Assembly (NCBI GenBank): GCA_002309855.1
Contig: DBYD01000035.1
Location: 9,054 to 73,053 of the forward strand
Reading direction: 5' to 3'
Source of the DNA: Bacteroidales bacterium UBA1195
GTDB taxonomy: Bacteria > Bacteroidota > Bacteroidia > Bacteroidales > WCHB1-69
Length of the DNA stretch: 64,000 nt
Within the stretch, counting starts at the first letter, position 1, and each line of letters opens with the position of its first letter. The notes under the pieces are model-generated. The model was not told where the DNA came from, ran no database searches, and worked only from the letters and a program-made list of their open reading frames with translations. The position numbers were made by a program, and so were the translations under genes. Below are positions 1-14,419 of the stretch, piece by piece.

Positions 1-1
1 G

Positions 2-1105
2 GACCTTGCCGAACTCGGCGCCATCTCCGAGACCACATCGAAGAATCTGGAATATGCTGTCACCACGATTGAGAACGTTGTGGCAGGGGCGTCCACAGGA
101 GCGTCCGCAGGCGGCTGGATAGGCGCCATCGTCGGCGCGGTGGTCGGGCTCGGAACCTCGGTTTTGGAGATATTCACCAAGGAGAAGCAGCTGGAGAGAG
201 CTGCGGCGGAACAGGCGAAAAAGGATGTCGAGGACCTCAAAGGGCGCATCAAGGACCTGAAAAAGGAATTTGCCGACATTGACATCTTCGGCACCAAGAA
301 TATGGACTGGTCGAAGTTCGAGGATGAGTTCGGGAAAGCGGCGAAATATTACGAAGCAATTAGAGCAACAAAAGCCAAAATGGCAGCGGCCGCTGCATCT
401 TCAGACCATCGTACTAATATACAGGGAAGTTCATCCTTAAATTATTTCTATGAACAGGCAATAATGATGTTGGAGGAGGAGTTGGTCGAATCCACTAACA
501 AGGCCGCCGAGGCCATATCCGGGCTGTTCAACGGGATTGGCAGCGACATCCTGGACATGCTCAACGACACCTCGAAGGGGGCGGAGGAGCTGCTGGCCGA
601 CTTCACGGACAGCCTCGGCTCATACGTGAGGCAGTGGGTGTCGCAGATGATGTTCTTTGAATTGATTAAGCCTGAACTTGACCGGCTCGAAAGCGAGTTG
701 AAAGACTCCTTGAAGCAAGCCATATCGACCGGGGATATGTCCGTCTTCACGGACAAACTTACGGAGACATCGAACGAATTAGCCGGACTTGCCAAGGGAT
801 GGGTAAACATCCGTGACCTCGTTACGGAAAAGATGCAGCCGTTCTACGACCAGTTCGGGGGCTCGCCGGCATCCGGATCCGCATCCGGCATGACGGGGGC
901 GGTGTCCGGCATGAGCGCTGAGACGGCCAGCCTGCTTGCCGGACAGCTGACAGCCATGAGGCTGAACGCGGCCAATATAGACAGCGCGATGCAGCAGACG
1001 CTCTACCATGTGAGCAATATCCACACCAACACGGACAGGATGGCGGCGGACATTGCGGAGATCAAGAACGGGATTAAGTACAACCAAAGGACAAACGCAT
1101 ATTGA
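2..1105 (+). CDS. Phage tail tape measure protein, C-terminal part (ORF open to the window start)
   Basis: The frame is open from nt 2, so the listed GTG at 80 is not the true start. It has a Gly/Ala-rich hydrophobic segment (GGWIGAIVGAVVGLGT), then coiled-coil and Met/Ala/Ser-rich low-complexity sequence typical of TMPs. It sits directly upstream of Dit/Tal-like genes. The stop TGA lies 1 nt before the next ATG. Confidence 0.6.
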   Translation, partial: DLAELGAISETTSKNLEYAVTTIENVVAGASTGASAGGWIGAIVGAVVGLGTSVLEIFTKEKQLERAAAEQAKKDVEDLKGRIKDLKKEFADIDIFGTKNMDWSKFEDEFGKAAKYYEAIRATKAKMAAAAASSDHRTNIQGSSSLNYFYEQAIMMLEEELVESTNKAAEAISGLFNGIGSDILDMLNDTSKGAEELLADFTDSLGSYVRQWVSQMMFFELIKPELDRLESELKDSLKQAISTGDMSVFTDKLTETSNELAGLAKGWVNIRDLVTEKMQPFYDQFGGSPASGSASGMTGAVSGMSAETASLLAGQLTAMRLNAANIDSAMQQTLYHVSNIHTNTDRMAADIAEIKNGIKYNQRTNAY

Positions 1106-1106
1106 A

Positions 1107-1811
1107 ATGGGGCATGTGAAGTATTATGTCAACGGGGTTGATTTCGCCACCTACGGCGTATTTGTAAGCGCATCGGACGGGCTGCTTGGCGCACCGGCGA
1201 TGAAGTCTGCCTACACACAGGACTGGAACAACTATCACGGGGCGATACCCTATGCGGTGAAACGCTACTACAAGCCGCGCACAATCCGCCTGCAGTGCTT
1301 CATCCATGCCGCAACACGTCCGCAGTTCGTGGAGAGTGTGCAGACATTCATGCGTGTGTGGAACGCAAACAGGGCTTCGGGGCAGAGCCGCACCGACAGG
1401 CTGCTGGTGGACGTCACCCCGGCAACGGCGGAGCCGAACAAGCGGGTGCTGGCCTATGAGGTGTCCATGGACGCTGCGGCGGACATCAGCAAGCGGTGGC
1501 ATGAGGGGCGGAATGTCGGGACGTTCTCTCTCACGCTGACAGAGCATGAGCCGTGCAAGCGCATCCTCTGCCATAACATCGCTGACCCAACATCCGTAGC
1601 ATTATTTTCACTCACTACATCCAAACTCCTCAATATCTATTGGGGGGACGGCAAGGCGGATTTCGATGTCTCCGGTACCGTAACTAAGTCTCATACCTAT
1701 GATGCTGCAGGTGTCTATTACATTATTATTTGCGGCTGCATAGACGAGATAGGTGCCTTTTCTATCCTATCGAACGTAAGAACAACGACAAAATGGAACA
1801 GATTACCGTAA
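1107..1811 (+). CDS. Phage distal tail protein (Dit-like) with PKD-like C-terminal extension
   Basis: ATG at 1107 (MGHVKYYVNG...) directly follows the TMP stop. Size and position match a siphophage Dit. The C-terminus carries an HTYxxxGxY PKD-type motif (SHTYDAAGVYYIII). Confidence 0.5.
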   Translation: MGHVKYYVNGVDFATYGVFVSASDGLLGAPAMKSAYTQDWNNYHGAIPYAVKRYYKPRTIRLQCFIHAATRPQFVESVQTFMRVWNANRASGQSRTDRLLVDVTPATAEPNKRVLAYEVSMDAAADISKRWHEGRNVGTFSLTLTEHEPCKRILCHNIADPTSVALFSLTTSKLLNIYWGDGKADFDVSGTVTKSHTYDAAGVYYIIICGCIDEIGAFSILSNVRTTTKWNRLP

Positions 1812-4567
1812 CCCATCCGAACGGCACGCCCATTAACCTGTTCAGCGCGGAGTACATGCGTTATGTTAAGAGCTGCCGACACGTTGTCACCAACCAGGAG
1901 ACGGATGTGGTGGAAGTGACCGTCGATGCGGCGGCAAGGACGGAATTCCGCATTGGCGACACCATCACCATCGCGGGCAACATCTACCGCCTTAACACGC
2001 TGCCTGTTGTCGCCAAGGACGGCACAAGGGCGGACGCGCTGCTGGACTACAGGATGGAGTTCGAGAGCCGGAAGTACGACATGCGCTACGCGGCGTTCCT
2101 GCTACCTGAAGGCGGGCGTGCGGATGACTACACCGGCACGCTTGGTGACTGGTTGCGGCTGGTCGTGGCCAATGTGAATCGTCTGGCCGGGGAGTATGTT
2201 CCGGCGACTGACCAGTCATTCCTTGCCGGAACCGGCTACTATATGCTGTACCGGCATACGGACGACCTCACCTTCAAGGCGGGGACGACATACTACAGGG
2301 AGTTTGACGGCTTTTTGGGCAGGTCTTTCCTGCCCCTGACCGCCGGAACCGACTACAATATCGGGGACTATGTGCTGCTGTGGGAACAGAATCAGGGCAA
2401 CGACCCCGATTATGAGCCTGTGCGCGTAATGGAGGCCTCAACGGACTACCAGCTGGCGGAAGTCGGCAAAGACTACAAGCTTGGACTTGGCATCGGGGAG
2501 GGCAACTTCTATGTGCGTACCAATCCGTGGCGAACCGGTATCGTCCCTGCAGCAGCACTGAAAAGATACGTGACAAAGGACTATGCAGGCCAGAACTGTC
2601 TGGCGGTGCTGCAGGACCTGTGCAAGGAGTACGGCTACGAGTACAGGATAGCGGAGAGCGCGGGCGTGTTCACCGTCAACATCCTGACCCCATCCGCAGT
2701 TGACCTGTCACTCCGCTTCGGGCGGGGCGGCGGCCTGTACAGCATCACACGCGAGGCTATACCGGCCACCGACATAATCACGCGCCTTTACGCCTACGGG
2801 AGCACCGACAACCTCTACCCCTCCTACCGTTACGGACGATTGTGCCTCCCCGGAAAAAGCAAGGAGAATAGCTATATTGAAGGGAGCGGGCAGGTGGCGG
2901 AGTACGGCATGAAGGAAGGGGTTGTCACATACGATGAGATCAAGCCGGAGTTCAACAGCAGTGTCGGAGCCATAGTGGGTGGCGACCCGCTGTCGTTCAT
3001 CGACACTTCAATGTTCGACATCGGGGCTAAGTGGGCGGACACGCCGGCGGACTACGCCGAGTTCCTTGGGATGCGCGGCATGTCGGATTCTTCCGAGGCG
3101 AGGGCGGCCTTCAGCGCTGCCCGCGGCAGCAGCAAGTACATGGTTGCCGGCACTTCACCAAAAGTCCATTTCAACAGTGGGAACCTGGCCGGTTACGAGT
3201 TCGAGATAGCGTCCTTCAATGCGCTTTCAAGCCTGGTTACGCTTGTGCGTGACCAGGAGAGCGGATTTCCGCGCTCCGATGCCGGTCCTGGAGGAATGTT
3301 TGCTGCCGGCGACGAATACGTGCTGGTGGACATCTACCTTCCGGAATATTATATCAGGCAGGCGGAGCAGCGGCTGCTGCAGGCCGCCAACTCCGACTAC
3401 GCCAGGCTGGCATCACCGCTGGCGGTCTATACCATTAAGCTGACGCGCGGGTGGGTGCAGATGTATCACCACCAGGCGGCGGATATTGTGACAGCCGGCA
3501 ATTTTGTCAACCTGCTCGATGACGACACTGAAGCTGACGATGACATCAAGATACGGTCATACACGCGCAACTACCTAACCGAGGACGAATACGAGATCAC
3601 GCTATGCAATGAGCGTCGTGAGACCTACTGGGAGCGGTGGTGGCGCAGGGAGGGCAGGAACCTCACCGGCACGACCTCCGGGCAGCGTGTGGAAGGCGGA
3701 GCCACAACCGGTACGGTTGAATTCACAACCGATGCCGACAACGACAGGCTTGTTATCACCGGCGGGAAGGCAATCGTCATAAACGGCAAGGTGCTGACAG
3801 TCGAAGACGTCAACCTGCACTATGCGAACGACGGGGCGCACATTGTCTATTTGTTGCCCAATGGAGGCAGGGCGGGTATCAGGATGGTCCCGATTGGGGA
3901 TGCGCCGTCGGCGCTCCCAACCGTGTCGCCTGGGGCGATACCGCTGGGTGTTGTCAGCGCGGCTGACAGCAACGGGGTAAGGAAGGTCACACTGTCCGCA
4001 ATGCGCGGCAACACGCCTGCGGAAGATGTCACTGTACGCACCGCAGGCGGAACGAAGCGGGCGAATGCGCTGCTCCCGGCTGTGCGCACATACGATGGCA
4101 CACAGCCCGGCACCGAAGGTGTCATATATACTGGTGAGCATGACGGCAATGTCGCTTTGTGGGTGTGGAATGCCGCGAACGGCGCATACCTGCGTGTCGG
4201 CTCCCCCGTCCCCAAGCACATCACCGGCATCGCCTTCGGTAACGACATACCGCAGATCACCGCGGCGGGCAGCTACGACTATTCCGCTGCAGTAACGCCT
4301 GCCGACACCACTGACAGTTATACAATCGCCTATGACATCGAATCCACAACGGCGGACAGCCGGGAGGAATCCGGAAGTATGGTCTATCTGCACTATATGT
4401 CCGGAGAGACGGAGGTGGTGCTTAGTTTCAGCCGTTCCACCGGGGAGATGACGGTCCCAAGCGGGGGTGACGGCTACTACGACACTGTGACGGTGACGGC
4501 CACGGCGACTGTCGGCGGGGAGGCTGCGGCCACCGCCGAGCAGGTCACGGAAATAACGATTAATTAA
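1793..4567 (+). CDS. Phage tail-associated / baseplate hub protein (Tal-like), large minor structural protein with Ig-like C-terminus
   Basis: The in-frame ATG at 1793 (MEQITVTHPNG) overlaps the previous gene by 19 nt. It encodes about 924 aa in third position after the TMP. The C-terminal ~100 aa resemble a Big_2/Ig-like repeat (TVTVTATATVGG...). Confidence 0.5.
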   Translation: MEQITVTHPNGTPINLFSAEYMRYVKSCRHVVTNQETDVVEVTVDAAARTEFRIGDTITIAGNIYRLNTLPVVAKDGTRADALLDYRMEFESRKYDMRYAAFLLPEGGRADDYTGTLGDWLRLVVANVNRLAGEYVPATDQSFLAGTGYYMLYRHTDDLTFKAGTTYYREFDGFLGRSFLPLTAGTDYNIGDYVLLWEQNQGNDPDYEPVRVMEASTDYQLAEVGKDYKLGLGIGEGNFYVRTNPWRTGIVPAAALKRYVTKDYAGQNCLAVLQDLCKEYGYEYRIAESAGVFTVNILTPSAVDLSLRFGRGGGLYSITREAIPATDIITRLYAYGSTDNLYPSYRYGRLCLPGKSKENSYIEGSGQVAEYGMKEGVVTYDEIKPEFNSSVGAIVGGDPLSFIDTSMFDIGAKWADTPADYAEFLGMRGMSDSSEARAAFSAARGSSKYMVAGTSPKVHFNSGNLAGYEFEIASFNALSSLVTLVRDQESGFPRSDAGPGGMFAAGDEYVLVDIYLPEYYIRQAEQRLLQAANSDYARLASPLAVYTIKLTRGWVQMYHHQAADIVTAGNFVNLLDDDTEADDDIKIRSYTRNYLTEDEYEITLCNERRETYWERWWRREGRNLTGTTSGQRVEGGATTGTVEFTTDADNDRLVITGGKAIVINGKVLTVEDVNLHYANDGAHIVYLLPNGGRAGIRMVPIGDAPSALPTVSPGAIPLGVVSAADSNGVRKVTLSAMRGNTPAEDVTVRTAGGTKRANALLPAVRTYDGTQPGTEGVIYTGEHDGNVALWVWNAANGAYLRVGSPVPKHITGIAFGNDIPQITAAGSYDYSAAVTPADTTDSYTIAYDIESTTADSREESGSMVYLHYMSGETEVVLSFSRSTGEMTVPSGGDGYYDTVTVTATATVGGEAAATAEQVTEITIN

Positions 4568-4585
4568 CCTTTAAATATCATTGAA

Positions 4586-7500
4586 ATGGTTTTCTTTTAC
4601 GAATCAGACTTCACAATCACGGAGAAAATACAGGACGCGCAGGGTGTTGCGCTTGACCTCTCCACCATGGACTTTGACATTGTGTACTCCACAAACGGGT
4701 ACCGCACCTACACGGCATCAAAGCACGGCAGCACCTACACCAACTGCGTGCTTGACGCGGACGACCACAGCGTTTTGCGCATAACCCTTGACGCGCACGG
4801 CCTGCAGCCCGGTTTCCTTGTGCGCGAGATAACCTTCCACACGGCACCGCCGCAGGGCTTTGACGGGAACATACAGGACATTTCAAAAAAACAGTATGTT
4901 GTTGACATTGACACCGGACGCGTGGTGCTGGGCCGTAAGACCTCCCCTGCAGGTGCGGGGCAGGTGTACGAGATATACCATGTTGACTTCATCAAGGGGG
5001 ACTCCGCCTACCAGGTGGCCGTCGCCAACGGTTTCAACGGCACCGAGGAGGAGTGGCTTGTGTCGCTGGCAATGATGTTCAACCCCAGGGGCGCGTATGA
5101 CGCGGAAACGACATACGCCAAGTGGGACATGGTGAACAGCAGTGACAGCAGCTATGTCTCCATCGCCGACAATAACACGGGCAACGAACTTTCGGACACC
5201 ACGAAGTGGATGCCGCTTGCCAGCGGGGCGGCGGCCAGCGTATTTGCTGAAGCGGCATCTGAAGCGGAGTTGCAACGCCAACGGGCGGAGGCTGCACGTG
5301 ATGCGGCGGAACAGCGTCGTGAGGAAAAGGAGGCTGTAAGGGACGATAACGAGTATAACCCGACCACAGGGCGTGTGGCGAAGGAGGCCGCACGTGCTGC
5401 GGCGGAACAGCGGCGTGTAGAGGCAGACAACGAGCGTAAAACCGAATGGGGCAGCTCCGAAAGCGGCCTGAAGAAAGAGATCCTGGACAGCATCGCAGCC
5501 GCCAACGCGGCGGCAGCCAATGCCGGTTCCCTGCAGGCCAGCCTCGAAGGCGGGATTGTTATCCCCGCCATGGCGGAAGACCTCTCCTCTCCGGGGGACC
5601 GGGTGACAGTGCGGGACAAATTCATCGTGCGCACCACCGCCGGTGATGAGAGCATCGACAGCACCAAGGACGCGCTCCTGCTTGAGGTGGTGGGCGGATG
5701 CGGCAGCCTGGAGAATGAGGCCTTCAAGATTAACGCGCTGCGATGGAACAGGGCCAACGCCATCGACCCGTCCGCATGGGCGTCCGGCAAGACCGGCGGC
5801 TACATCACCGGTGCGGTGAGCGGCGGGGTGATCACCGACGGCAGCAACAAGCTCTGCATCGTCCACACCCCGAAATGTGAGGCCGGTGAATACGGCACGG
5901 CAGAAAAGAACAACGGCTGGCTGCTGACGGACAGGAATGGGAACAACCTGAAGGTCGGGGACGGCACTGTCGTCGGCGTGTGGTACTGCGCTGCGCTCCC
6001 CGCATCCGGTTCAGCGGTGACCGCCGTCACCGAGCACACCTTCACCGGGCACACGGAGCGCTTCTACCTCCCCGATGAGGGGTGGATGGTGGTCGAGCTG
6101 GCCTCCGGAGCGACGCTGGCGGACATCTGCTGCCATCTGGCATGGAGCTATGGCTATGACCAGTTTACTGCATACGCCGCGCCTGCGGAGCTCTCACTTG
6201 CAGTCTCCGCACTCACCAGCAAGTTCCAGACGGCAACGGTGAACGGGAAGACCTGCCTTGTGATGCGCGGCATCGAGCAGGGCGTCGGCGGCATCTTCGA
6301 CCGCGTGACCATCTACCCGGAAGGCGGCGGTACTTATGAGCGCAACATTGCCGCCCAATTGCTGACCGACCTGACATGGACTGAGACCGAGATAGAGGGT
6401 GAAGTCGTGGAGGGCGAAGGCGCGGCTGCAAGCGGCTACCGCTATACTGCCTCGCTGCCCACGAGCGGCACCTATGCCGCCCTGCGTGACGGTCTTATCC
6501 GTCCGGATGTGGACGGCATGACACTCAACGGCTACAAGCTCACATACGACAGCCCTGAACAGATTGATCCGGCCACAGCGTTTGCCGGCAAATATGTGGA
6601 CTACCAGATTGCCACCCCGGTGGCAGGCACCCACAGCATCAACCCTACCGGGAAGCTGCCCAACGACATGGGGACGGAGGAGGTCATCGGCGGAGATAAC
6701 GCCACCGGCACAATCGTGATCAGCTACATGCGCGGGTTCCGCGATACGATGCGTGCGCTGTACAACGACTTTAACCGTGCGAGCGCGGAACTCAAGGAGA
6801 TGGGCTACACCAAACCGCTCTACTGTGTCGGGGAATGGCTCGCCAATGCCAACACCGCAAGCCCGGCAGACCAGGACAACCCTGATGCGCTGGCCGTGTT
6901 CGGCAACCGTGAGTGGGCGCTTGACTGGAGGCCGTTCCTGGTTGACATGACTGCCGTGGAGGGCGAGACGAAGAAACACCCCGTGATGGAGCTGCGAAAG
7001 AACAACTGGCTCCGCGACATCTACGGCAACTGGGCTCCGGTGGTGGGCATCACCACCGCCATGCGTGACGAATGCATGGCCAACGCCCTCTACACCGATG
7101 CGGACTGTACCAGCCAATACTGCGCCGCCGGTGAATACGACCCGGAGGCTTTCCTGGCATTATGCCGGATTGAGCTTGTTAACGGGATGAAGGTGCTCAC
7201 CCACCCGACGCTCTACAAGTCCGCAGCCACCGAGGTCGGCCACTACCTTATGCCATGGGAGACTGTTGAGACCAAATATTCCATTTTTGTCGGCAGGAAG
7301 GATGAGGTGTATTTGCTTGACAACGTTGTCGGTGCAAGCGGCAAGGAGTGGAACGGCATCATCGGGGCGAACGCGAATGTGTGGGACGGTGTGGATGCCA
7401 GGACATACGCCCTGAAGCCCACCGGCATCTGTCCCAGCCCCGCAACCGCCATATCCGAGAATGACGTGGTTAAGATCCGCAGTTTCTTCTACAACTACCC

Positions 7501-8695
7501 CTCCTCGCTGACCGGCGTGAAGGGAAGGACCGGACTCGCCGGGACGATGTTTTACGGGGACGGCCACTACCCGACATCCGGATACAGCCAGATAACGACC
7601 AAAACAAATGCCCGAGCAAACAACCACGTTGCTACCGATCCTTTTCCTGTCGCTGAAGGCGGATGGCACGCCCGAAACACTTTCCTGCGCTGTATTGAGA
7701 CAGCCCTTGGCACCAAGAACCTCTGCTCCTCTGCCCGCTACAGCAGCGGCATCTCCGCCGTCGATGCGTGCGGCAACGAGGAACAATGGCTTGCAAGTGG
7801 CGGTGTCCGCATCAAGGCTACCGGCGACACAAACTGGACATACAAAGGCTGGGGTAATGAAGGCAAAATCTACTACAAGGACGGCAGTTCTTATAAGACC
7901 ACCAATATGGCGAACCTGCTCACGCAATATGCCCCGCACAGCAAGACGCTGGAGGCGCAGGTGGCGGTCAGCTTTGCGGTTGAGTTCGGTGTCGCCGCCG
8001 GTGAGCATTACATCTTCAACGGCTGCGAGTGGTGGTATGCCAACCCGACGACTTCCATATTCACACCACCGACCGTGGCTGAAGGATATATGAATGCACG
8101 TGTGTTCAAGGTTGTCACCGGCAGTGTCTCCGCCTACAGCGATACGGCGGGCACACCGGAGACCTTCACGGTCGAATGCTGCCTCCGCACCGGGCTGGCG
8201 CTCGGCTGCGACATGAGCGGCGACATCGGCCCGTGTTGGGGTGGCGGCTGCGAAATCGTGGGAGAGTGTGTCACAACCCCGGCCAGCGGAAGTTACGGAT
8301 ATACGCTGAAGGTGTATATTGAGCCTGACCAGATGAAATGGGTGAACGAGGGGAACACCAACGCCAATATCGGAACCAAGTTCCCGTCAGGGTTCGAGGA
8401 CAAATACCGCTACGTCGGCAGTGTTGTCACCCGCACGAGCAGCTATATACGCCGCAGGATTCCGAATACGCCGCTGCCGGTCAGCCAGGGCGCAACATAT
8501 AGCAAAGGCGAATGCGGCTACGGATATATGGCGAACTACTGGGGCAGCGCAGGAAAGAAAACCCGCGTGGGTGTCCGGGCAGGCAGCCACGCGAACAACA
8601 GTTCCCTGTCGGCGCGGTTTCTGAATGCGAACACCTCCGCAGGCAACACGTTCAGCTTCTCTTGCGGTTCTGCTCAAGTGCTTTTAGATGTGTGA
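4586..8695 (+). CDS. Phage tail fibre / receptor-binding protein (1369 aa) with a C-lectin/DGR-VR-like C-terminus
   Basis: It is the largest structural ORF and follows the Tal-like gene. It has an Ala/Glu/Arg coiled-coil with an internal duplication (EAARDAAEQRR / EAARAAAEQRR). The C-terminal RVGVRAGSHANNSSLSARFLNANTSAGNTFSFSCGSAQVLLDV resembles the Mtd-type variable region (..SRAANWNNGPSNSNANIGARGVC..). Confidence 0.6.
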   Translation: MVFFYESDFTITEKIQDAQGVALDLSTMDFDIVYSTNGYRTYTASKHGSTYTNCVLDADDHSVLRITLDAHGLQPGFLVREITFHTAPPQGFDGNIQDISKKQYVVDIDTGRVVLGRKTSPAGAGQVYEIYHVDFIKGDSAYQVAVANGFNGTEEEWLVSLAMMFNPRGAYDAETTYAKWDMVNSSDSSYVSIADNNTGNELSDTTKWMPLASGAAASVFAEAASEAELQRQRAEAARDAAEQRREEKEAVRDDNEYNPTTGRVAKEAARAAAEQRRVEADNERKTEWGSSESGLKKEILDSIAAANAAAANAGSLQASLEGGIVIPAMAEDLSSPGDRVTVRDKFIVRTTAGDESIDSTKDALLLEVVGGCGSLENEAFKINALRWNRANAIDPSAWASGKTGGYITGAVSGGVITDGSNKLCIVHTPKCEAGEYGTAEKNNGWLLTDRNGNNLKVGDGTVVGVWYCAALPASGSAVTAVTEHTFTGHTERFYLPDEGWMVVELASGATLADICCHLAWSYGYDQFTAYAAPAELSLAVSALTSKFQTATVNGKTCLVMRGIEQGVGGIFDRVTIYPEGGGTYERNIAAQLLTDLTWTETEIEGEVVEGEGAAASGYRYTASLPTSGTYAALRDGLIRPDVDGMTLNGYKLTYDSPEQIDPATAFAGKYVDYQIATPVAGTHSINPTGKLPNDMGTEEVIGGDNATGTIVISYMRGFRDTMRALYNDFNRASAELKEMGYTKPLYCVGEWLANANTASPADQDNPDALAVFGNREWALDWRPFLVDMTAVEGETKKHPVMELRKNNWLRDIYGNWAPVVGITTAMRDECMANALYTDADCTSQYCAAGEYDPEAFLALCRIELVNGMKVLTHPTLYKSAATEVGHYLMPWETVETKYSIFVGRKDEVYLLDNVVGASGKEWNGIIGANANVWDGVDARTYALKPTGICPSPATAISENDVVKIRSFFYNYPSSLTGVKGRTGLAGTMFYGDGHYPTSGYSQITTKTNARANNHVATDPFPVAEGGWHARNTFLRCIETALGTKNLCSSARYSSGISAVDACGNEEQWLASGGVRIKATGDTNWTYKGWGNEGKIYYKDGSSYKTTNMANLLTQYAPHSKTLEAQVAVSFAVEFGVAAGEHYIFNGCEWWYANPTTSIFTPPTVAEGYMNARVFKVVTGSVSAYSDTAGTPETFTVECCLRTGLALGCDMSGDIGPCWGGGCEIVGECVTTPASGSYGYTLKVYIEPDQMKWVNEGNTNANIGTKFPSGFEDKYRYVGSVVTRTSSYIRRRIPNTPLPVSQGATYSKGECGYGYMANYWGSAGKKTRVGVRAGSHANNSSLSARFLNANTSAGNTFSFSCGSAQVLLDV

Positions 8696-9387
8696 GCCAC
8701 ATTATTAAGCATGCACGCCCTGACTGTAGGGTTGTGTACAACGATTTCGACCATTTCTGCGAACGTCTGGCCAATGTCGGTCGCACCAATGAGATGCTCC
8801 ACGCGCTGCGCCCTATTGTCGCGGAAATCCCACACAAAATGCGCATTGTGGAGCCCGTGCGTTCCGCTGTTCTGGCGGAAGTGTTACGATGGCACAAGTC
8901 CGGCTTTGTGGACTGGATAACAATATCCAGCAACCTGTTGTTCGTTATGAACTACGTCGGCAGTTATGAGGAGTTCGCAAAAATGACATTCTACAACAGA
9001 GTCAGGGTTGTGGACTATGACGTGTCAGGCTATCTGGAAGGCGTCGAAATCGTTTCAATGGACTACAGACCGCTCTTTGATATGTTCAGGGAAAATGAGG
9101 ATGTTGTGTTCATACTTGACCCGCCATATCTGTCAACGGATTGCAGCACGTACAACAGCTCGGACTATTGGCGTTTGTCCGACTATCTGGACGTGCTGAA
9201 ATGTCTGCAGGGAACAAACTATGTCTATTATACCAGCAGCAAAAGTTCCATCGTTGAACTCGCGGAATTCATATCCAGAACTGACCTTCGCGACAACCCG
9301 TTCAAAGGAGCGACAATATACAAGCACCCTGTCAAAGGAATCGCTCTGAACTACGAAGACATGATGCTCGTGAAAACAGCCGCTTGA
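8692..9387 (+). CDS. T4-Dam-like N6-adenine DNA methyltransferase, N-terminally truncated (SAM motif I absent)
   Basis: It has a DPPY catalytic motif (VVFILDPPYLSTDCSTYNSSDYW) and an upstream VVYNDFDHFCERL block that matches the Dam region following motif I. No FxGxG motif is available in this frame after the fibre stop. Possible starts are GTG 8692 or the first ATG at 8794. GC content drops sharply at 8695. Confidence 0.5.
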   Translation: MSHIIKHARPDCRVVYNDFDHFCERLANVGRTNEMLHALRPIVAEIPHKMRIVEPVRSAVLAEVLRWHKSGFVDWITISSNLLFVMNYVGSYEEFAKMTFYNRVRVVDYDVSGYLEGVEIVSMDYRPLFDMFRENEDVVFILDPPYLSTDCSTYNSSDYWRLSDYLDVLKCLQGTNYVYYTSSKSSIVELAEFISRTDLRDNPFKGATIYKHPVKGIALNYEDMMLVKTAA

Positions 9388-9400
9388 TGTGAGAAAAAAA

Positions 9401-9431
9401 AAGAGCGTTGCTTGAACTTTGCAACGCTCTT
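9401..9431. terminator. Perfect 11-bp stem hairpin (AAGAGCGTTGC-N9-GCAACGCTCTT) flanked by an A-run
   Basis: Read directly from the sequence. It lies 14 nt after the methyltransferase stop. The A9 run on the 5' side would give a U-tract on the opposite strand, so it could act bidirectionally. Confidence 0.6.
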
Positions 9432-9457
9432 TAAAACTTCGCCAAAATCCGTTCACG

Positions 9458-9495
9458 AATGTACATTTCGTTTGAAATTAATGTACATTTCGTTT
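9458..9495. promoter_or_regulatory. Two exact 16-bp direct repeats AATGTACATTTCGTTT (22-bp period), each containing the palindrome TGTACA
   Basis: Copies are at 9458-9473 and 9480-9495, at the 5' edge of the HExxH ORF. This is a candidate operator. Confidence 0.4.
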
Positions 9496-10553
9496 TGCGG
9501 ATTATAGTTGTGCGACCTTTAGAGAGAGGTTTGTATAATCGATTTATTGGCGAAGCTCATGAACCACACAAAAAAGACTGGATTCATCTTTTGAACATAT
9601 TGGAGTTTAAAGGGAAATATGAAAACATAGTAAATCTTTTACATTCCATGCCTGTTTGTCTTCGTGAATCAAAATCTTTGGCAGACCGTGATGAAAACCG
9701 TGATAAAGACAGCATTATAGATCTGTTGGGAGCATATTGTCCCAATCAAAACTATGACAATCCTCACATTGAATTGTATTTGACCGATATTGATGTTTCG
9801 ACCAAAAACAATGAGGAACATTTCAAATGGCTTTTTACCAAAGTGCTTTTTCACGAATTGGCTCACGCTGCTTTGGATATTTATATGTTGAATCGTAATC
9901 GTCAAGAGGCAGAAAGAGTTTCTTATAAAACAGAATTTGACCGGTGGCGTGAAGAGTCAATGGCGAATGCCGTCGCACTCCGGATAATAAAAGATTTTGG
10001 TAACAAAGATTTCTATGATTATGCCAAAAATTATATGCAAACACAACCAAAAGAGTATGCACTCGGCGTTTTGATGGAAGACTTTGGTTATTGGGATTTC
10101 AGAAGCGTTTTTCAAGCAAAGGAAGATGGAGTAAATTCCACCCTACAACAGGAATGGCTGAAGTATGTTAAAGGCACTCCTGACTGGGAGGGGATGAAAA
10201 AATGGAATGAATTATTGAATACTCAGTATGTCTATATCTTTGAAGGAAAATATTATTCATCGGAAGAAGTATTGGTATTCGACATTGTAAACAAGGTGCT
10301 TTCTGACTATGTGAACAAAAATGGAAATAAAATGCCATTTAACACATTTAGTTCACTTTTCCCATATATCAGAACTGGTGCAGAGATGTCATACGAACCG
10401 ACACAAAAGGTCATAGGAGATAGCCGATATAAAGAGTTAAGATTAGTTGATGGCAATTATTCCTTGTATTATTTCTGGGACAATGGTTCTCTACATGCGT
10501 TTGTGGATGCTAAAAAACTCCATATCAATATAATTGAATACAAGAATTACTAA
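9459..10553 (+). CDS. Hypothetical protein with an HExxH metallopeptidase-like core (ImmA/IrrE- or SprT-like) and an unknown C-terminal domain
   Basis: It has LFHELAHAALD with a downstream EESMANAVAL, which fits an HExxH plus distal Glu arrangement. GC is about 35 percent. The start is uncertain because the next in-frame ATG is at 9648. A strong terminator follows the ORF. Confidence 0.4.
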   Translation: MYISFEINVHFVLRIIVVRPLERGLYNRFIGEAHEPHKKDWIHLLNILEFKGKYENIVNLLHSMPVCLRESKSLADRDENRDKDSIIDLLGAYCPNQNYDNPHIELYLTDIDVSTKNNEEHFKWLFTKVLFHELAHAALDIYMLNRNRQEAERVSYKTEFDRWREESMANAVALRIIKDFGNKDFYDYAKNYMQTQPKEYALGVLMEDFGYWDFRSVFQAKEDGVNSTLQQEWLKYVKGTPDWEGMKKWNELLNTQYVYIFEGKYYSSEEVLVFDIVNKVLSDYVNKNGNKMPFNTFSSLFPYIRTGAEMSYEPTQKVIGDSRYKELRLVDGNYSLYYFWDNGSLHAFVDAKKLHINIIEYKNY

Positions 10554-10606
10554 AAATCCTCATCCTTGTGGCCTATGCCGTAGCCAAGGCCAAGCAGTAA
10601 ACGTAA

Positions 10607-10644
10607 GGGACATTCTGCAACAGGCAGGGTGTCCCCTTTTTTTT
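10607..10644 (+). terminator. Rho-independent terminator
   Basis: The stem is GGGACATTCTGC / GCAGGGTGTCCC (12 bp including 2 G-U pairs) with a 5-nt loop. It is followed by C and then T8. Confidence 0.75.
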
Positions 10645-10899
10645 GCCCCCCGTAAAAAATACCTTTTTGCCGACATGATATCCGGGCGGGACGGAATGTC
10701 CAAAGCTGGAACCGGATTTCCACAGCTCTGAAAAAGGACACTAAAAATCACTGAATAAAATTTACTTTTAGTACAACTTTAAAAAAAAAGTATTCTGAAG
10801 GTGAAAAAAGGTTGTTTTTTGGTTAATTTTTGTGAGAAATCTGTTATATATGATTGCAATCAAAAACCAAAACATCAACTTTTTTCAAATCCAAATACA

Positions 10900-12540
10900 A
10901 TGCCTGTAACCAACCAACAAATCACCTTATTAGCCGCCATCGAGCGTGTCGCCACAAATGCCAAAGCATCGGAACTGGACGATCGGTTCTTCACAACGTG
11001 CAAGGAGGAACTGTCATATCTTGCCAACAGCTATGGAATCACCCCGTTGCAGGCCGCGCTCTTCTGTGTCTGCATGGAAAAGGGTCCGAATTACATTTAT
11101 TTCCACGATTTGGCATCCTATCTCAATCTCAACACTATTCGTATTCTTAGCTATGGTACCGACATCGACGCCCTTGTCCACCGCCGCCTGCTGCGCTACT
11201 GCGATACGAAAGACGAAGGCTCTATTGATGTGCCAGCTAAAGTCATCAAGGCCCTCAAACACAATGAGGTGTACCAGCTACCCAAACACACTGATTTGGA
11301 CGCCTGTGGTATGATGGAGTATATGAACATGTGGTTTGAAGACCTCCACGACGATGCCGTTTCCGCACGTGAGCTGCGCGAAGAGATGAAAGCCATGATT
11401 AATGATAACCCACAAGTCGGTCTCGCGCAGAAAGTCAAAACCCTCGACCTCAATGACGAAGACGTGCTGCTGCTGCTTTTCTTCTGCCACGAACTCATCA
11501 ATGACAATGATGACGACATTCGTTTCCATCGGCTCGAAGACCTCTTTGACAACATAATTGTCTTCAACCACGCCAAAAACCTCTTGCAACGTGGTGACCA
11601 TCCTCTTATGCAAAAAAAGCTGATTGAGCATCAATGCGTCAACGGCCTTGCCGACAACACCTGTTACAAGCTCACCGAACTGGCCAAGCGCGACCTGCTC
11701 GGCGAATTCAATATCAACATCGCCGATGAAAAGCTTGCCGATGTGCTGCTGTCTGACAGCATCACCGCCAAAGAACTCTTCTACAGCGAAAGTGTCAGCC
11801 GTCAGGTTGACGAATTGTCCGCGTTGTTGGACGCAGGGCAATACAAGCAAATTCGCGAGCGGATGAAACAGCGGGGGTTCCGTCAGGGATTCACCTGCCT
11901 TTTCCATGGCGGTCCCGGAACGGGAAAGACCGAGACTGTGTACCAACTGGCACGCCGCACGGGCCGTCAGGTGATGGTGGTTGATGTGCCGCAGATCAAG
12001 AGCAAATGGGTCGGCGAAAGCGAGAAGAACATCAAGGCGCTCTTTGACCGCTACCGTGCGCTGGTGGAGAAATCAGATGTGGCGCCCATTCTGCTTTTCA
12101 ACGAGGCTGACGCCATTATCGGCATCCGCAAGCAGGGGGCGGAAGATGCCGTTGACAAAATGGAGAACACCATCCAGAACATTATTCTGCAGGAGATGGA
12201 AAATCTTGACGGTATCCTTATCGCCACCACCAATCTGACTGAGAACCTTGACAGTGCCTTTGAGCGCCGCTTCCTCTACAAGATACGTTTTGACAAGCCT
12301 GATGCCACAGTGCGCAGCAAAATATGGCAGACAAAGATACCCGAATTGTCCGCGATGGATGCCGACACCATTGCCGGACGTTACAGTTTCAGTGGAGGCC
12401 AGATAGAGAATATTGCCCGGAAGTATACTGTCTTCAGCATCCTCCACGGTGAAACCGGATGCCCGCAAAGTGCCATTATAGAACTCTGTAACAACGAAAA
12501 AATAGCTGCAAATAATTCAAGAAAAATTGGTTTTTTATGA
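10900..12540 (+). CDS. Classic-clade AAA+ ATPase (CDC48/SpoVK/FtsH-like module) with a long N-terminal helical/wHTH-like region
   Basis: Walker A is GGPGTGKTE, Walker B is ILLFNEADAI, and sensor/second region of homology is ATTNLTENLDSAFERRF. The preferred start is ATG 10900 (MPVTNQQ). The ORF track starts at GTG 10801. Confidence 0.8.
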   Translation: MPVTNQQITLLAAIERVATNAKASELDDRFFTTCKEELSYLANSYGITPLQAALFCVCMEKGPNYIYFHDLASYLNLNTIRILSYGTDIDALVHRRLLRYCDTKDEGSIDVPAKVIKALKHNEVYQLPKHTDLDACGMMEYMNMWFEDLHDDAVSARELREEMKAMINDNPQVGLAQKVKTLDLNDEDVLLLLFFCHELINDNDDDIRFHRLEDLFDNIIVFNHAKNLLQRGDHPLMQKKLIEHQCVNGLADNTCYKLTELAKRDLLGEFNINIADEKLADVLLSDSITAKELFYSESVSRQVDELSALLDAGQYKQIRERMKQRGFRQGFTCLFHGGPGTGKTETVYQLARRTGRQVMVVDVPQIKSKWVGESEKNIKALFDRYRALVEKSDVAPILLFNEADAIIGIRKQGAEDAVDKMENTIQNIILQEMENLDGILIATTNLTENLDSAFERRFLYKIRFDKPDATVRSKIWQTKIPELSAMDADTIAGRYSFSGGQIENIARKYTVFSILHGETGCPQSAIIELCNNEKIAANNSRKIGFL

Positions 12541-12568
12541 TTCCCAAATTCAAATAAATTCAGAATTC

Positions 12569-13252
12569 ATGAAAGAACAGAAAGATTTTTCATTTTTACC
12601 ATTTGAAGATTACTCGAATTCACTGCTTTGTAAGTATTCAAAATCTTATAAAGCAAAAGTTTATGAATACACAAATTGCAGCAATCATAACTTGATTGTT
12701 GAGGGCTCCTTTAATAGATTATTGTCTCAAATGAAAGAAAAAGACTTTGCTATACTTACTGCATATAGAAGTACGTTGACGAAAAAAGAAAACATCATGC
12801 GAAATCGTAATCTTCGTGGTATTTTAAATGCTGATGAAATGGGAGTTCACCAATTGGTCGGTCATTGGAGGGAAAACCCTAATGGCAGTGATTATAGGGA
12901 TGCCGAAGAAAATGAATTGGTAGATGCTGTTGAACGTTCATACTTTGTCGCCAAACCGGATTCGATGCCATTTGAAAAATTTAAGGGATGTATCTTAAAA
13001 TGTCTCACAATGGATGGGCAAACACAAGATCCGGCAATTATTAGTAAAGGTGGTGATATTTATTGTTTGCATAATACAGGCAGTTTAGAAAAAATTGCAA
13101 AAAAAATATCATTAAACAAAATAAATCAAGCATATTCCCAATATATAAAACATTTGGACATACCATTTGTGTTTGAAGGGGTTGAAAGACCCGGTTCAAA
13201 TATGGGTTTGTTTGCGTATGAAAAGAATGGTTTTAAAACCGTTACACTATAA
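12569..13252 (+). CDS. Hypothetical protein (228 aa), partner of the AAA+ ATPase
   Basis: ATG 12569 lies 28 nt after the ATPase stop on the same strand, and GC is low. I recognise no domain. The notable block is DFAILTAYRSTLTKKENIMRNRNLRGIL...VGHWRE...VERSYFV. Confidence 0.35.
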   Translation: MKEQKDFSFLPFEDYSNSLLCKYSKSYKAKVYEYTNCSNHNLIVEGSFNRLLSQMKEKDFAILTAYRSTLTKKENIMRNRNLRGILNADEMGVHQLVGHWRENPNGSDYRDAEENELVDAVERSYFVAKPDSMPFEKFKGCILKCLTMDGQTQDPAIISKGGDIYCLHNTGSLEKIAKKISLNKINQAYSQYIKHLDIPFVFEGVERPGSNMGLFAYEKNGFKTVTL

Positions 13253-13356
13253 AATTCCGAAGATACCAGTACGGACGGTCAGGGACGTGGCATAAATATG
13301 GACGGTACACAATATATTCAGAATAATTAAGTTATAACATTAAAAATCTTTGAAAT

Positions 13357-13782
13357 ATGAGATATATAAGGACAATTCAAGAAATGATTGATGAGCAGGT
13401 ATCTGAAACTATTAGCCGTATCGATCCGATAACAGAAATGGCAGTGCCGTTGAATAAATACAAAGTACGTGTCGATGGATTAAGATTTCATCTTGTCAGG
13501 AACTGGTGCCTATGCAGATATTGCCAGTTGTTTGATACGATGAACATATGTTTCAAGCATTGGATAAATGAATTGGAAGCGGTCATTGAAAAGTTCCTCC
13601 GCCTCCATCTCCATCCGCGAGAAGGCGAACCATTTCTTTCCGAGGTCTTTCAGCGAGGCACCGATGTGATAGACGGAAGAGCAAATTTTTTTTTTTCGTC
13701 CACGCGGAATCTGTGTCGGGATTTTGAATACTTTTGCAGTGTCATAACCGATAATTTGAAACTACTGATACGGCTTGTGTGA
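13357..13782 (+). CDS. Hypothetical small protein, probably chimeric: an AT-rich 5' two-thirds reads through a GC-rich patch containing a T11 tract
   Basis: The ORF is real up to about 13595. The remaining 3' third overlaps the repeat copy at 13595-13636 and an unstarted minus-strand reading frame (..VYHIGASLKDLGKKWFAFSRMEMEAEE..). Confidence 0.3.
   Translation: MRYIRTIQEMIDEQVSETISRIDPITEMAVPLNKYKVRVDGLRFHLVRNWCLCRYCQLFDTMNICFKHWINELEAVIEKFLRLHLHPREGEPFLSEVFQRGTDVIDGRANFFFSSTRNLCRDFEYFCSVITDNLKLLIRLV
13595..13636. repeat. Copy A of an approximately 42-bp imperfect direct repeat (38/42 identical to 14365-14406)
   Basis: The sequence is TCCTCCGCCTCCATCTCCATCCGCGAGAAGGCGAACCATTTC, aligned by eye with copy B. 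Confidence 0.85.
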
Positions 13783-13831
13783 AAACAGTTTGAAGATTTG
13801 GTGTGATTAAATGGAATAAAAAGTCAATGCA

Positions 13832-14029
13832 ATGGGAAAACAATATAAAAAAGAAAAAAACAAGGTGATTGTGGTTTCGGAGCCGGAACCTGCTTATGGT
13901 TTGGCAAAGGGCTGCCAGGTTCCTGTTACAGATTTGTCTGAAGAGGAGTTGCTGTCAGGCACAATGTCGGTTGACGCCTATTTTGATGAATTGATTTCAT
14001 TGGTGCGTAAGGACTATGAAAATCTATGA
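13832..14029 (+). CDS. Putative type II antitoxin (65 aa)
   Basis: This small ORF overlaps the downstream ParE/RelE-like toxin gene by 14 nt and has an acidic C-terminal half. Confidence 0.5.
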   Translation: MGKQYKKEKNKVIVVSEPEPAYGLAKGCQVPVTDLSEEELLSGTMSVDAYFDELISLVRKDYENL

Positions 14030-14324
14030 AGTAAGAATCAGCCGCTCTGCACGGACTGATATGGACAATTTGCGGGTCTTTCTGGACGAGATGTTGTCGG
14101 AGGAGAGGGCTATACGCTATGCCAACAACATGCGGTCTGAAATCAAAATGTTGTCCATATATGCTGAATGTAACGGTTGCACAACATCCCGGACATTGCG
14201 CATGATTCATCCTAAAGCACGTAGAATGGTGTCTCACAACCGTCGTTGGATTTATGTTTACCATATTGAGGGAACATATGTGATTGTGGACAGGATTCTT
14301 CCTGCAAAGATGAATAAAGGTTAA
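14016..14324 (+). CDS. RelE/ParE-family type II toxin (102 aa)
   Basis: Size and pattern fit the family (MKIYEVRISRSARTDMDNL..., ...WIYVYHIEGTYVIVDRILP). It is translationally coupled to the upstream small ORF. Confidence 0.6.
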   Translation: MKIYEVRISRSARTDMDNLRVFLDEMLSEERAIRYANNMRSEIKMLSIYAECNGCTTSRTLRMIHPKARRMVSHNRRWIYVYHIEGTYVIVDRILPAKMNKG

Positions 14325-14364
14325 CCTTCCAATCTCTTAATCGGATTTGGTCATTTCCATCACC

Positions 14365-14406
14365 TCCTCCGTCCCCATCTCCATCCGTGAGAAGGCGAAG
14401 CATTTC
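14365..14406. repeat. Copy B of the approximately 42-bp imperfect direct repeat, 14 nt from the recF stop
   Basis: The sequence is TCCTCCGTCCCCATCTCCATCCGTGAGAAGGCGAAGCATTTC. It lies at the cargo/host junction. Confidence 0.85.
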
Positions 14407-14419
14407 AGTTATCGGCAAC

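Follow-up and report, generated by a model that had tools for sequence, protein, structure and literature searches.

The closest described counterpart of the DGR considered here is that of crAssE-Sib, an Epsilonunovirus (Viruses 2024; PMC11054128) whose genome is deposited under the name csAssE-Sib (OR575929.1). The published model of its receptor-binding protein (RBP) resembles TaqVP and TvpA and differs significantly from Mtd, and its reverse transcriptase (RT) carries a non-canonical GxxxSP motif, as a consequence of which such elements are missed by myDGR (PMC11054128). Many Epsilonunoviruses have a fragmented RT or none at all (PMC11054128). Decayed cassettes are therefore already known, and the locus described below is a further, cleanly resolved case. 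It lies in a window of 64 kb (by which the whole stretch of DNA analysed is meant) from Bacteroidales bacterium UBA1195, contig DBYD01000035.1.

The fibre gene and its receptor-binding module

The gene at issue is the fibre or receptor-binding protein gene of a siphovirus-type prophage, an identity that follows from its setting, because tape-measure, Dit-like and Tal-like genes precede it (Table 1). The contig (C33) starts within the prophage, and the left arm of the prophage is absent from it. The translated protein ends in RVGVRAGSHANNSSLSARFLNANTSAGNTFSFSCGSAQVLLDV, followed by the stop codon, in exact agreement with the fibre end quoted in the original prediction, and the NNC codons quoted alongside it (AGC CAC ... 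AAC AAC ... AAC ACC ... GGC AAC ... TTC AGC TTC) are found at 8585-8662.

Table 1. Coordinates of features at the fibre locus, numbered from the first nucleotide of the window
Feature	Position	Strand	Remarks
Tape-measure gene, C-terminal part	to 1105		siphovirus-type prophage tail module
Dit-like gene	1053-1811		upstream of the fibre gene, same tail module
Tal-like gene	1730-4567		directly before the fibre gene
Tail fibre / receptor-binding protein gene	4586..8695	+	1369 aa
C-terminal receptor-binding module	6869..8692	+	~610 aa (residues 762-1369); homologous to the crAssE-Sib RBP
Variable repeat (VR), now without cognate template	8567..8679	+	113 nt; last ~38 fibre codons
IMH-like invariant VR 3' end	8663..8679	+	TGCGGTTCTGCTCAAGT; identical to relatives' VR ends
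Deletion junction	8688..8695	+	..GATGTG / TGAGCCAC.. (slash, join); microhomology 2-3 nt
5'-truncated D12-class N6-adenine DNA methyltransferase remnant	8692..9387	+	codons 45-275

Searches of Pfam, NCBIfam and PHROGs revealed no informative domain in the fibre C-terminus, and a profile search with the fibre domain against PDB sequences gave no match. When the last 319 aa were compared by tblastn with deposited phage genomes there was a single match, to OR575929.1, and this falls under the annotated VR and IMH of that genome, with the template repeat (TR), IMH* and RT gene just downstream; no gaps interrupt the alignment in the VR. By BLASTP the whole module and the crAssE-Sib RBP share 37% identity over 614 columns (E = 2e-111; residues 762-1369 against 93-680). 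An earlier structure model of the last 319 aa, in which the pLDDT of the VR half stayed below 50, gave meaningless Foldseek matches, the cause being truncation of the domain. An AF2 model of the 610-aa module, for which a more diverse alignment was used, has a pLDDT of 96.1 and a pTM of 0.95. Its top three PDB matches in Foldseek are all chains of TaqVP (5VF4), none of them significant (E 0.12, TM 0.41 on target, 9% identity), and in BFVD there are significant matches to phage and crAss-like tail-fibre proteins. The label 'Mtd-like' originally given to the domain was imprecise, the domain being homologous to the crAssE-Sib RBP and having that protein and, by weak structural matches, TaqVP as its nearest relatives, and not Mtd.

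Comparison of 84 homologues (47-95% identity) revealed a near-invariant scaffold, KTRVGVRxGxxAxxSxLSARxLxAxxSAGxTxxxxCGSAQVLLDV, interrupted by extreme variation at fixed positions. In the 67 homologues that could be aligned without gaps the column entropy reaches 2-3.6 bits at 14 positions and is about zero in the flanking scaffold, and the entropy peaks coincide with the adenine-containing codons AAC, TAT, TAC and AGC in the TRs of relatives. Representatives of the target domain form 176 clusters (50% identity; 1.84 billion proteins), in every one of which the domain is C-terminal, and the backbones that bear it are siphovirus-like, Mu-like (L021, L022) and crAss-like. The records name Bacteroidales MAGs from the guts of ruminants and horses as hosts, and in that type of habitat related phages with a DGR are common. 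Neither the fibre domain nor the DGR RT was found in any of 60 related species genomes.

Intact relatives and the origin of the variable repeat

The three closest relatives of the window locus, L011, L012 and L013, come from ruminant-gut metagenomes, and in each of them a 113-119-nt repeat of the fibre end (the TR) occurs 255-318 nt downstream and is followed by an RVT_1 gene. Mismatches between their own VRs and TRs fall at TR adenines in 13/13, 15/16 and 13/13 cases respectively, and nine further relatives give figures ranging from 9/9 to 14/16. Over the tail module (window 1-8679) L011 is collinear with the window and 93-99% identical to it at the nucleotide level. All of the ~22 intact relatives have the cassette directly 3' of the fibre gene; their RTs have GTPTSP and YADD motifs and 51% identity to the crAssE-Sib RT, and the interval between target and RT is too short to hold avd. 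The cassette is a member of the lineage, with a GxxxSP RT and without Avd, that is known from the crAss-like phage crAssE-Sib. At three other loci (L039, L040 and L055, the last with a full RT) VR and TR differ at 39/113 positions, 21 of them adenines, and the excess of mismatches reflects either a wrong ungapped register or divergence by ordinary mutation.

The window VR is 88.5% identical to the L011 TR (L011:12540-12652), with 13 mismatches over 113 nt, and 11 of these are at TR adenines, which make up 30 of the 113 positions (hypergeometric P = 5e-6). The two remaining mismatches, at 8600 and 8606, coincide with positions at which the TRs of relatives are themselves polymorphic, and are probably due to the allele that the lost TR carried. 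The IMH-like end is situated where OR575929.1 has its annotated IMH. Where the VRs of relatives have the sequence listed in Table 1 their TRs carry TGCGGTTCTGCTAAAGT (IMH*), and the end of the window VR differs from IMH* (..GCTAAAGT) in the same way as do the VRs of relatives. Because of the homology to a TR, the adenine-biased mismatches and the family-wide pattern of variation, this stretch is, judged by its sequence, a DGR variable repeat by descent, which would last have been rewritten from a TR very like that of L011, and the DGR-type signature claimed for the fibre C-terminus is real.

A conserved block follows the stop codon in intact relatives (L011:12350-12420; also L014-L018 and L022-L033), consisting in order of GTGCAAC, hairpin 1, TGCAAG, hairpin 2 and a terminator, and the pentamer TGCAA is present 4-5 times in ~55 nt of it. 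Hairpin 1 is GTGGC-GCA-GCCAC, with covarying variants, and the variants of hairpin 2 represent a compensatory swap. In intact relatives hairpin 2 covaries between GGGCGAT-GCA-ATCGCCC and GGGCCAT-GCA-ATGGCCC, with a DNA fold z of -3.6; this hairpin is absent 3' of the VR in the window, where the DNA fold z is -1.0. The TGCAA/hairpin block is probably the DGR target-recognition element of the crAssE-Sib-type GxxxSP, Avd-less lineage.

Probable loss of the cassette from the window

The abrupt switch to a truncated methyltransferase that had been remarked on beyond the fibre gene is genuine, and occurs at 8692 because of a deletion of ~2.8 kb. Window positions 8691-9506 are 100% identical to L011:15155-15970, which is the interior of an intact D12-class methyltransferase gene from codon 45 onwards, and L011:12335-15154 (~2.8 kb) is missing from the window. 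On the fibre side the missing segment includes the last fibre codon and stop, the two 3' hairpins, the terminator and the TR, and further on it includes the RT gene (RVT_1), a thymidylate synthase (ThyA) gene and the first 44 codons of the methyltransferase. The TGA that now ends the fibre gene (8693-8695) comes from methyltransferase sequence. Since a gene without its N-terminus cannot be ancestral to a complete gene, we infer that the event was a deletion in the window lineage and not an insertion in the relatives. The remnant has lost SAM-binding motif I (FVDLFGGSG), and the Pfam MethyltransfD12 match is confined to residues 11-73 of the intact L011 enzyme. The last five fibre codons of the window are synonymous to those of L011 but different, and they match the allele of L026 and L027, which have the corresponding undeleted fibre end, CAAGTGCTTTTGGATGTGCAATGA; because of this match the immediate ancestor appears to have been a close relative of L011 and not L011 itself.

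The region between the RT and methyltransferase genes is generally plastic, because L013 is also without the thymidylate-synthase gene (L011:14362-15006), its RT ORF running directly into the methyltransferase region. Past 9506 the window diverges from L011. Positions 9459-14419, beyond the truncated methyltransferase, are low-GC (37-42%) cargo, the products of which are an unassigned protein of 364 aa, an AAA+ ATPase (PF00004) and one of 241 aa that weakly matches a SAM-lyase family, and a 42-nt direct repeat (90% identity; 13595-13636 and 14365-14406) is located near the prophage-host boundary.

The claim that the window has no RT or template repeat was borne out, in that a repeat search with 8380-8700 found no second copy within the 64 kb, and the same is true of the assembly as a whole, a MAG of 68 contigs (2.34 Mb, 89.8% complete). 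No copy of the VR or TR was found elsewhere in these 2.34 Mb, even with 7-nt words and with the TRs of relatives as queries, and a tblastn search of the assembly with the L011 DGR RT gave no homologue. The sole RVT_1 (PF00078) match in the assembly, at C9:65460-66053, was rejected as a DGR RT as it scores as retron-type by both PADLOC (RT-Protease_XI, 6e-111) and the NCBIfam retron models. The locus around it (L009, C9:65283-69911) has RT-Protease_XI and RT-TIR_XII as its best PADLOC matches, the RT part alone being matched; after the RT come three ORFs (388, 216 and 583 aa), the first of them without a PADLOC or NCBIfam match, and the locus is possibly a retron or a defence system with uncharacterised effectors.

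The assembly lacks both a cognate TR and a DGR-type RT, the two components that a complete, potentially active DGR requires. The original prediction had named such an absence from the genome, together with a lack of read-level variability, as refuting the DGR reading; the absence counts against current activity only, and not against a DGR origin. The target had been put forward as remote from its DGR, as orphaned, or as one with a replaced diversification module, and an orphaned target is upheld by the near-identical phages that carry TR and RT immediately 3' of the same fibre gene, with VR/TR mismatches at adenines, and by the ~2.8-kb deletion seen here, whereas the assembly-wide absence of TR and DGR-type RT argues against a DGR acting in trans. 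It is accordingly improbable that the VR is still being diversified by a DGR on unassembled DNA, or by a co-resident or superinfecting related phage with a matching TR and IMH*. Such a system would find an intact IMH-like VR end, identical to those of relatives, in an assembly that is ~90% complete, on a contig from which the left part of the prophage is absent, and in a type of habitat where phages of this kind are common, but neither TR nor DGR-type RT occurs in 2.34 Mb, the site at which ~22 intact relatives have the cassette is contiguous and empty, and the two conserved hairpins beyond the VR have been deleted. In BPP-1 a hairpin flanking the VR is needed for efficient retrohoming.

There is very little likelihood that the junction is an artefact of assembly or binning, i.e. 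that the contig is chimeric and the real phage has a complete cassette. The join shares 2-3 nt, far below any assembler k-mer. Assemblers are known to be confused by VR/TR repeats, but a collapse of that kind would remove ~318 nt and leave post-TR sequence next to the VR, whereas the actual join is to methyltransferase codon 45, 2.8 kb away. The source is a short-read MAG and the junction is present in no other public assembly searched (neither IMG/VR nor the JGI metagenomes contain the exact junction, and looking up the exact protein gave no match either); against this, both flanks are collinear with one and the same relative, L011, and similar cassette-less layouts are present in six other independent assemblies. 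The last alternative, that an Asn/Ser-rich fibre tip which was never diversified resembles a DGR VR by coincidence, might have drawn on the failure of Pfam, NCBIfam and PDB sequence searches to recognise the domain and on the poor quality of the initial model, which covered just the last 319 aa, but can be regarded as effectively refuted at the sequence level by the nucleotide homology to a relative's TR with its adenine-biased mismatches, by the position-specific variation within the family and by a homologue with annotated VR, TR and IMH.

The reading preferred here, that the fibre tip is the VR of a once-adjacent DGR which was orphaned by the ~2.8-kb deletion and is now frozen, is very probably correct as a whole. 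In the ancestor a DGR would have been situated immediately 3' of the prophage tail-fibre gene, and the GxxxSP RT of this Avd-less cassette would have copied a TR ~300 nt downstream, misincorporating at adenines, with the resulting cDNA replacing the VR and thereby rewriting ~14 codons of the receptor-binding tip. An illegitimate deletion of ~2.8 kb, at the level of microhomology, would then have taken the hairpins, terminator, TR, RT, thymidylate-synthase gene and methyltransferase start, and would have kept the fibre ORF intact, with one residue lost and a new TGA gained. The VR would thus have been left as its last diversification made it (SH.NN.S....F.N.NT...N.FSFS), and mutagenic retrohoming would no longer enable the phage to retarget its receptor-binding protein. 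The fibre is presumably still functional, and it would seem that no diversification is going on now.

Decay across the family and comparison with known systems

The extent of decay was assessed at ~31 unique informative loci, the window included. TR and RT are both present at ~22 of these, at two (L015 and L026) the TR is kept and the RT is lost but for its last ~15 codons, and at seven (the window, L020, L024, L027, L031, L038 and L050) there is neither TR nor RT, so that about 9/31 related loci (roughly 30%) are decayed, and independent decay is common in the family. The RT remnant at L015:7158-7430 (=L042) and L026 (=L043), ..FKGSTNQMEYIK and stop, represents a mode of decay unlike that of the window. 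A fibre end of 'LLDV' followed directly by the stop codon, without Q or N, was considered as a mark of cassette loss and rejected, as P0081/L022 has the same end together with an RT. Despite divergent fibres, L020 (6958-7097), L024 and L050 have a common post-fibre replacement, ..GTGAATCCCCCTGCCCCCTTAAAAGGGGGACGAGGG.., and L027 (=L044) and L038, the fibres of which are also divergent, have ..GACCTCC(T)CCCCCAGCCCCTCCTCCG.. in common after hairpin 2. These common junction modules suggest either that DGR-less haplotypes have spread by recombination or that there is a preferred exchange point. Independent breaks occur within ~10 nt of the stop codon in the window, in L031 and in the L020/L024/L050 group. 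On this small sample of cassette-less loci it is conceivable, if on balance unlikely, that the block of TGCAA repeats and twin hairpins acts as a hot spot of recombination, or as a boundary of the cassette, where TR and RT are repeatedly lost or exchanged. If such deletions were promoted by processing of the target site itself (nicking, or extrusion of a cruciform, at the IMH and hairpin), a route to self-loss would be built into DGRs.

No new mechanism is established by this locus. It does show that a DGR VR can be recognised from sequence alone with neither TR nor RT present, and it provides a clean, nucleotide-resolved instance of DGR loss in which a functional-looking receptor-binding fibre is kept and the ability to retarget it is lost. 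The GxxxSP, Avd-less lineage, which has been described for Epsilon crAss-like phages only, is widespread and is also carried by temperate phages, both siphovirus-like and Mu-like, of Bacteroidales from the guts of ruminants and horses. These observations bear on DGR surveys and on estimates of how often the host-range plasticity of phages is switched off.

Among known systems, the Mtd DGR of BPP-1 shares with the window lineage the adenine-specific transfer of sequence from TR to VR in the C-terminal codons of a tail-fibre receptor-binding protein, and it shares with the intact relatives an IMH at the VR end and one or more hairpins just 3' of the VR. However, no sequence similarity can be detected between the window fibre and Mtd, the lineage combines a GxxxSP RT with the absence of Avd, and the window copy is without TR, RT and hairpins. 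TaqVP of Thermus aquaticus (PDB 5VF4) is a 381-aa bacterial protein and not a phage fibre. The crAssE-Sib element has, like the window lineage, a homologous target module with VR and IMH at its extreme 3' end and a TR between target and RT, and, like the intact relatives, it has an RT with GTPTSP in place of GxxxSQ, plus YADD. crAssE-Sib is a crAss-like podovirus, whereas the window holds a siphovirus-type temperate prophage in a ruminant-gut Bacteroidales MAG; the window fibre has an extra N-terminal part of ~760 aa, and its TR and RT have been wholly deleted, along with two unrelated genes. The decayed DGRs of crAss-like phages (PMC11054128, PMC12386605) resemble the window in that a VR-bearing target is kept and the RT and/or TR is fragmented or deleted. 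The window differs from them in that an intact and near-identical relative allows the boundaries of the loss to be placed to the nucleotide, and in that thyA was removed and a methyltransferase inactivated in the same event.
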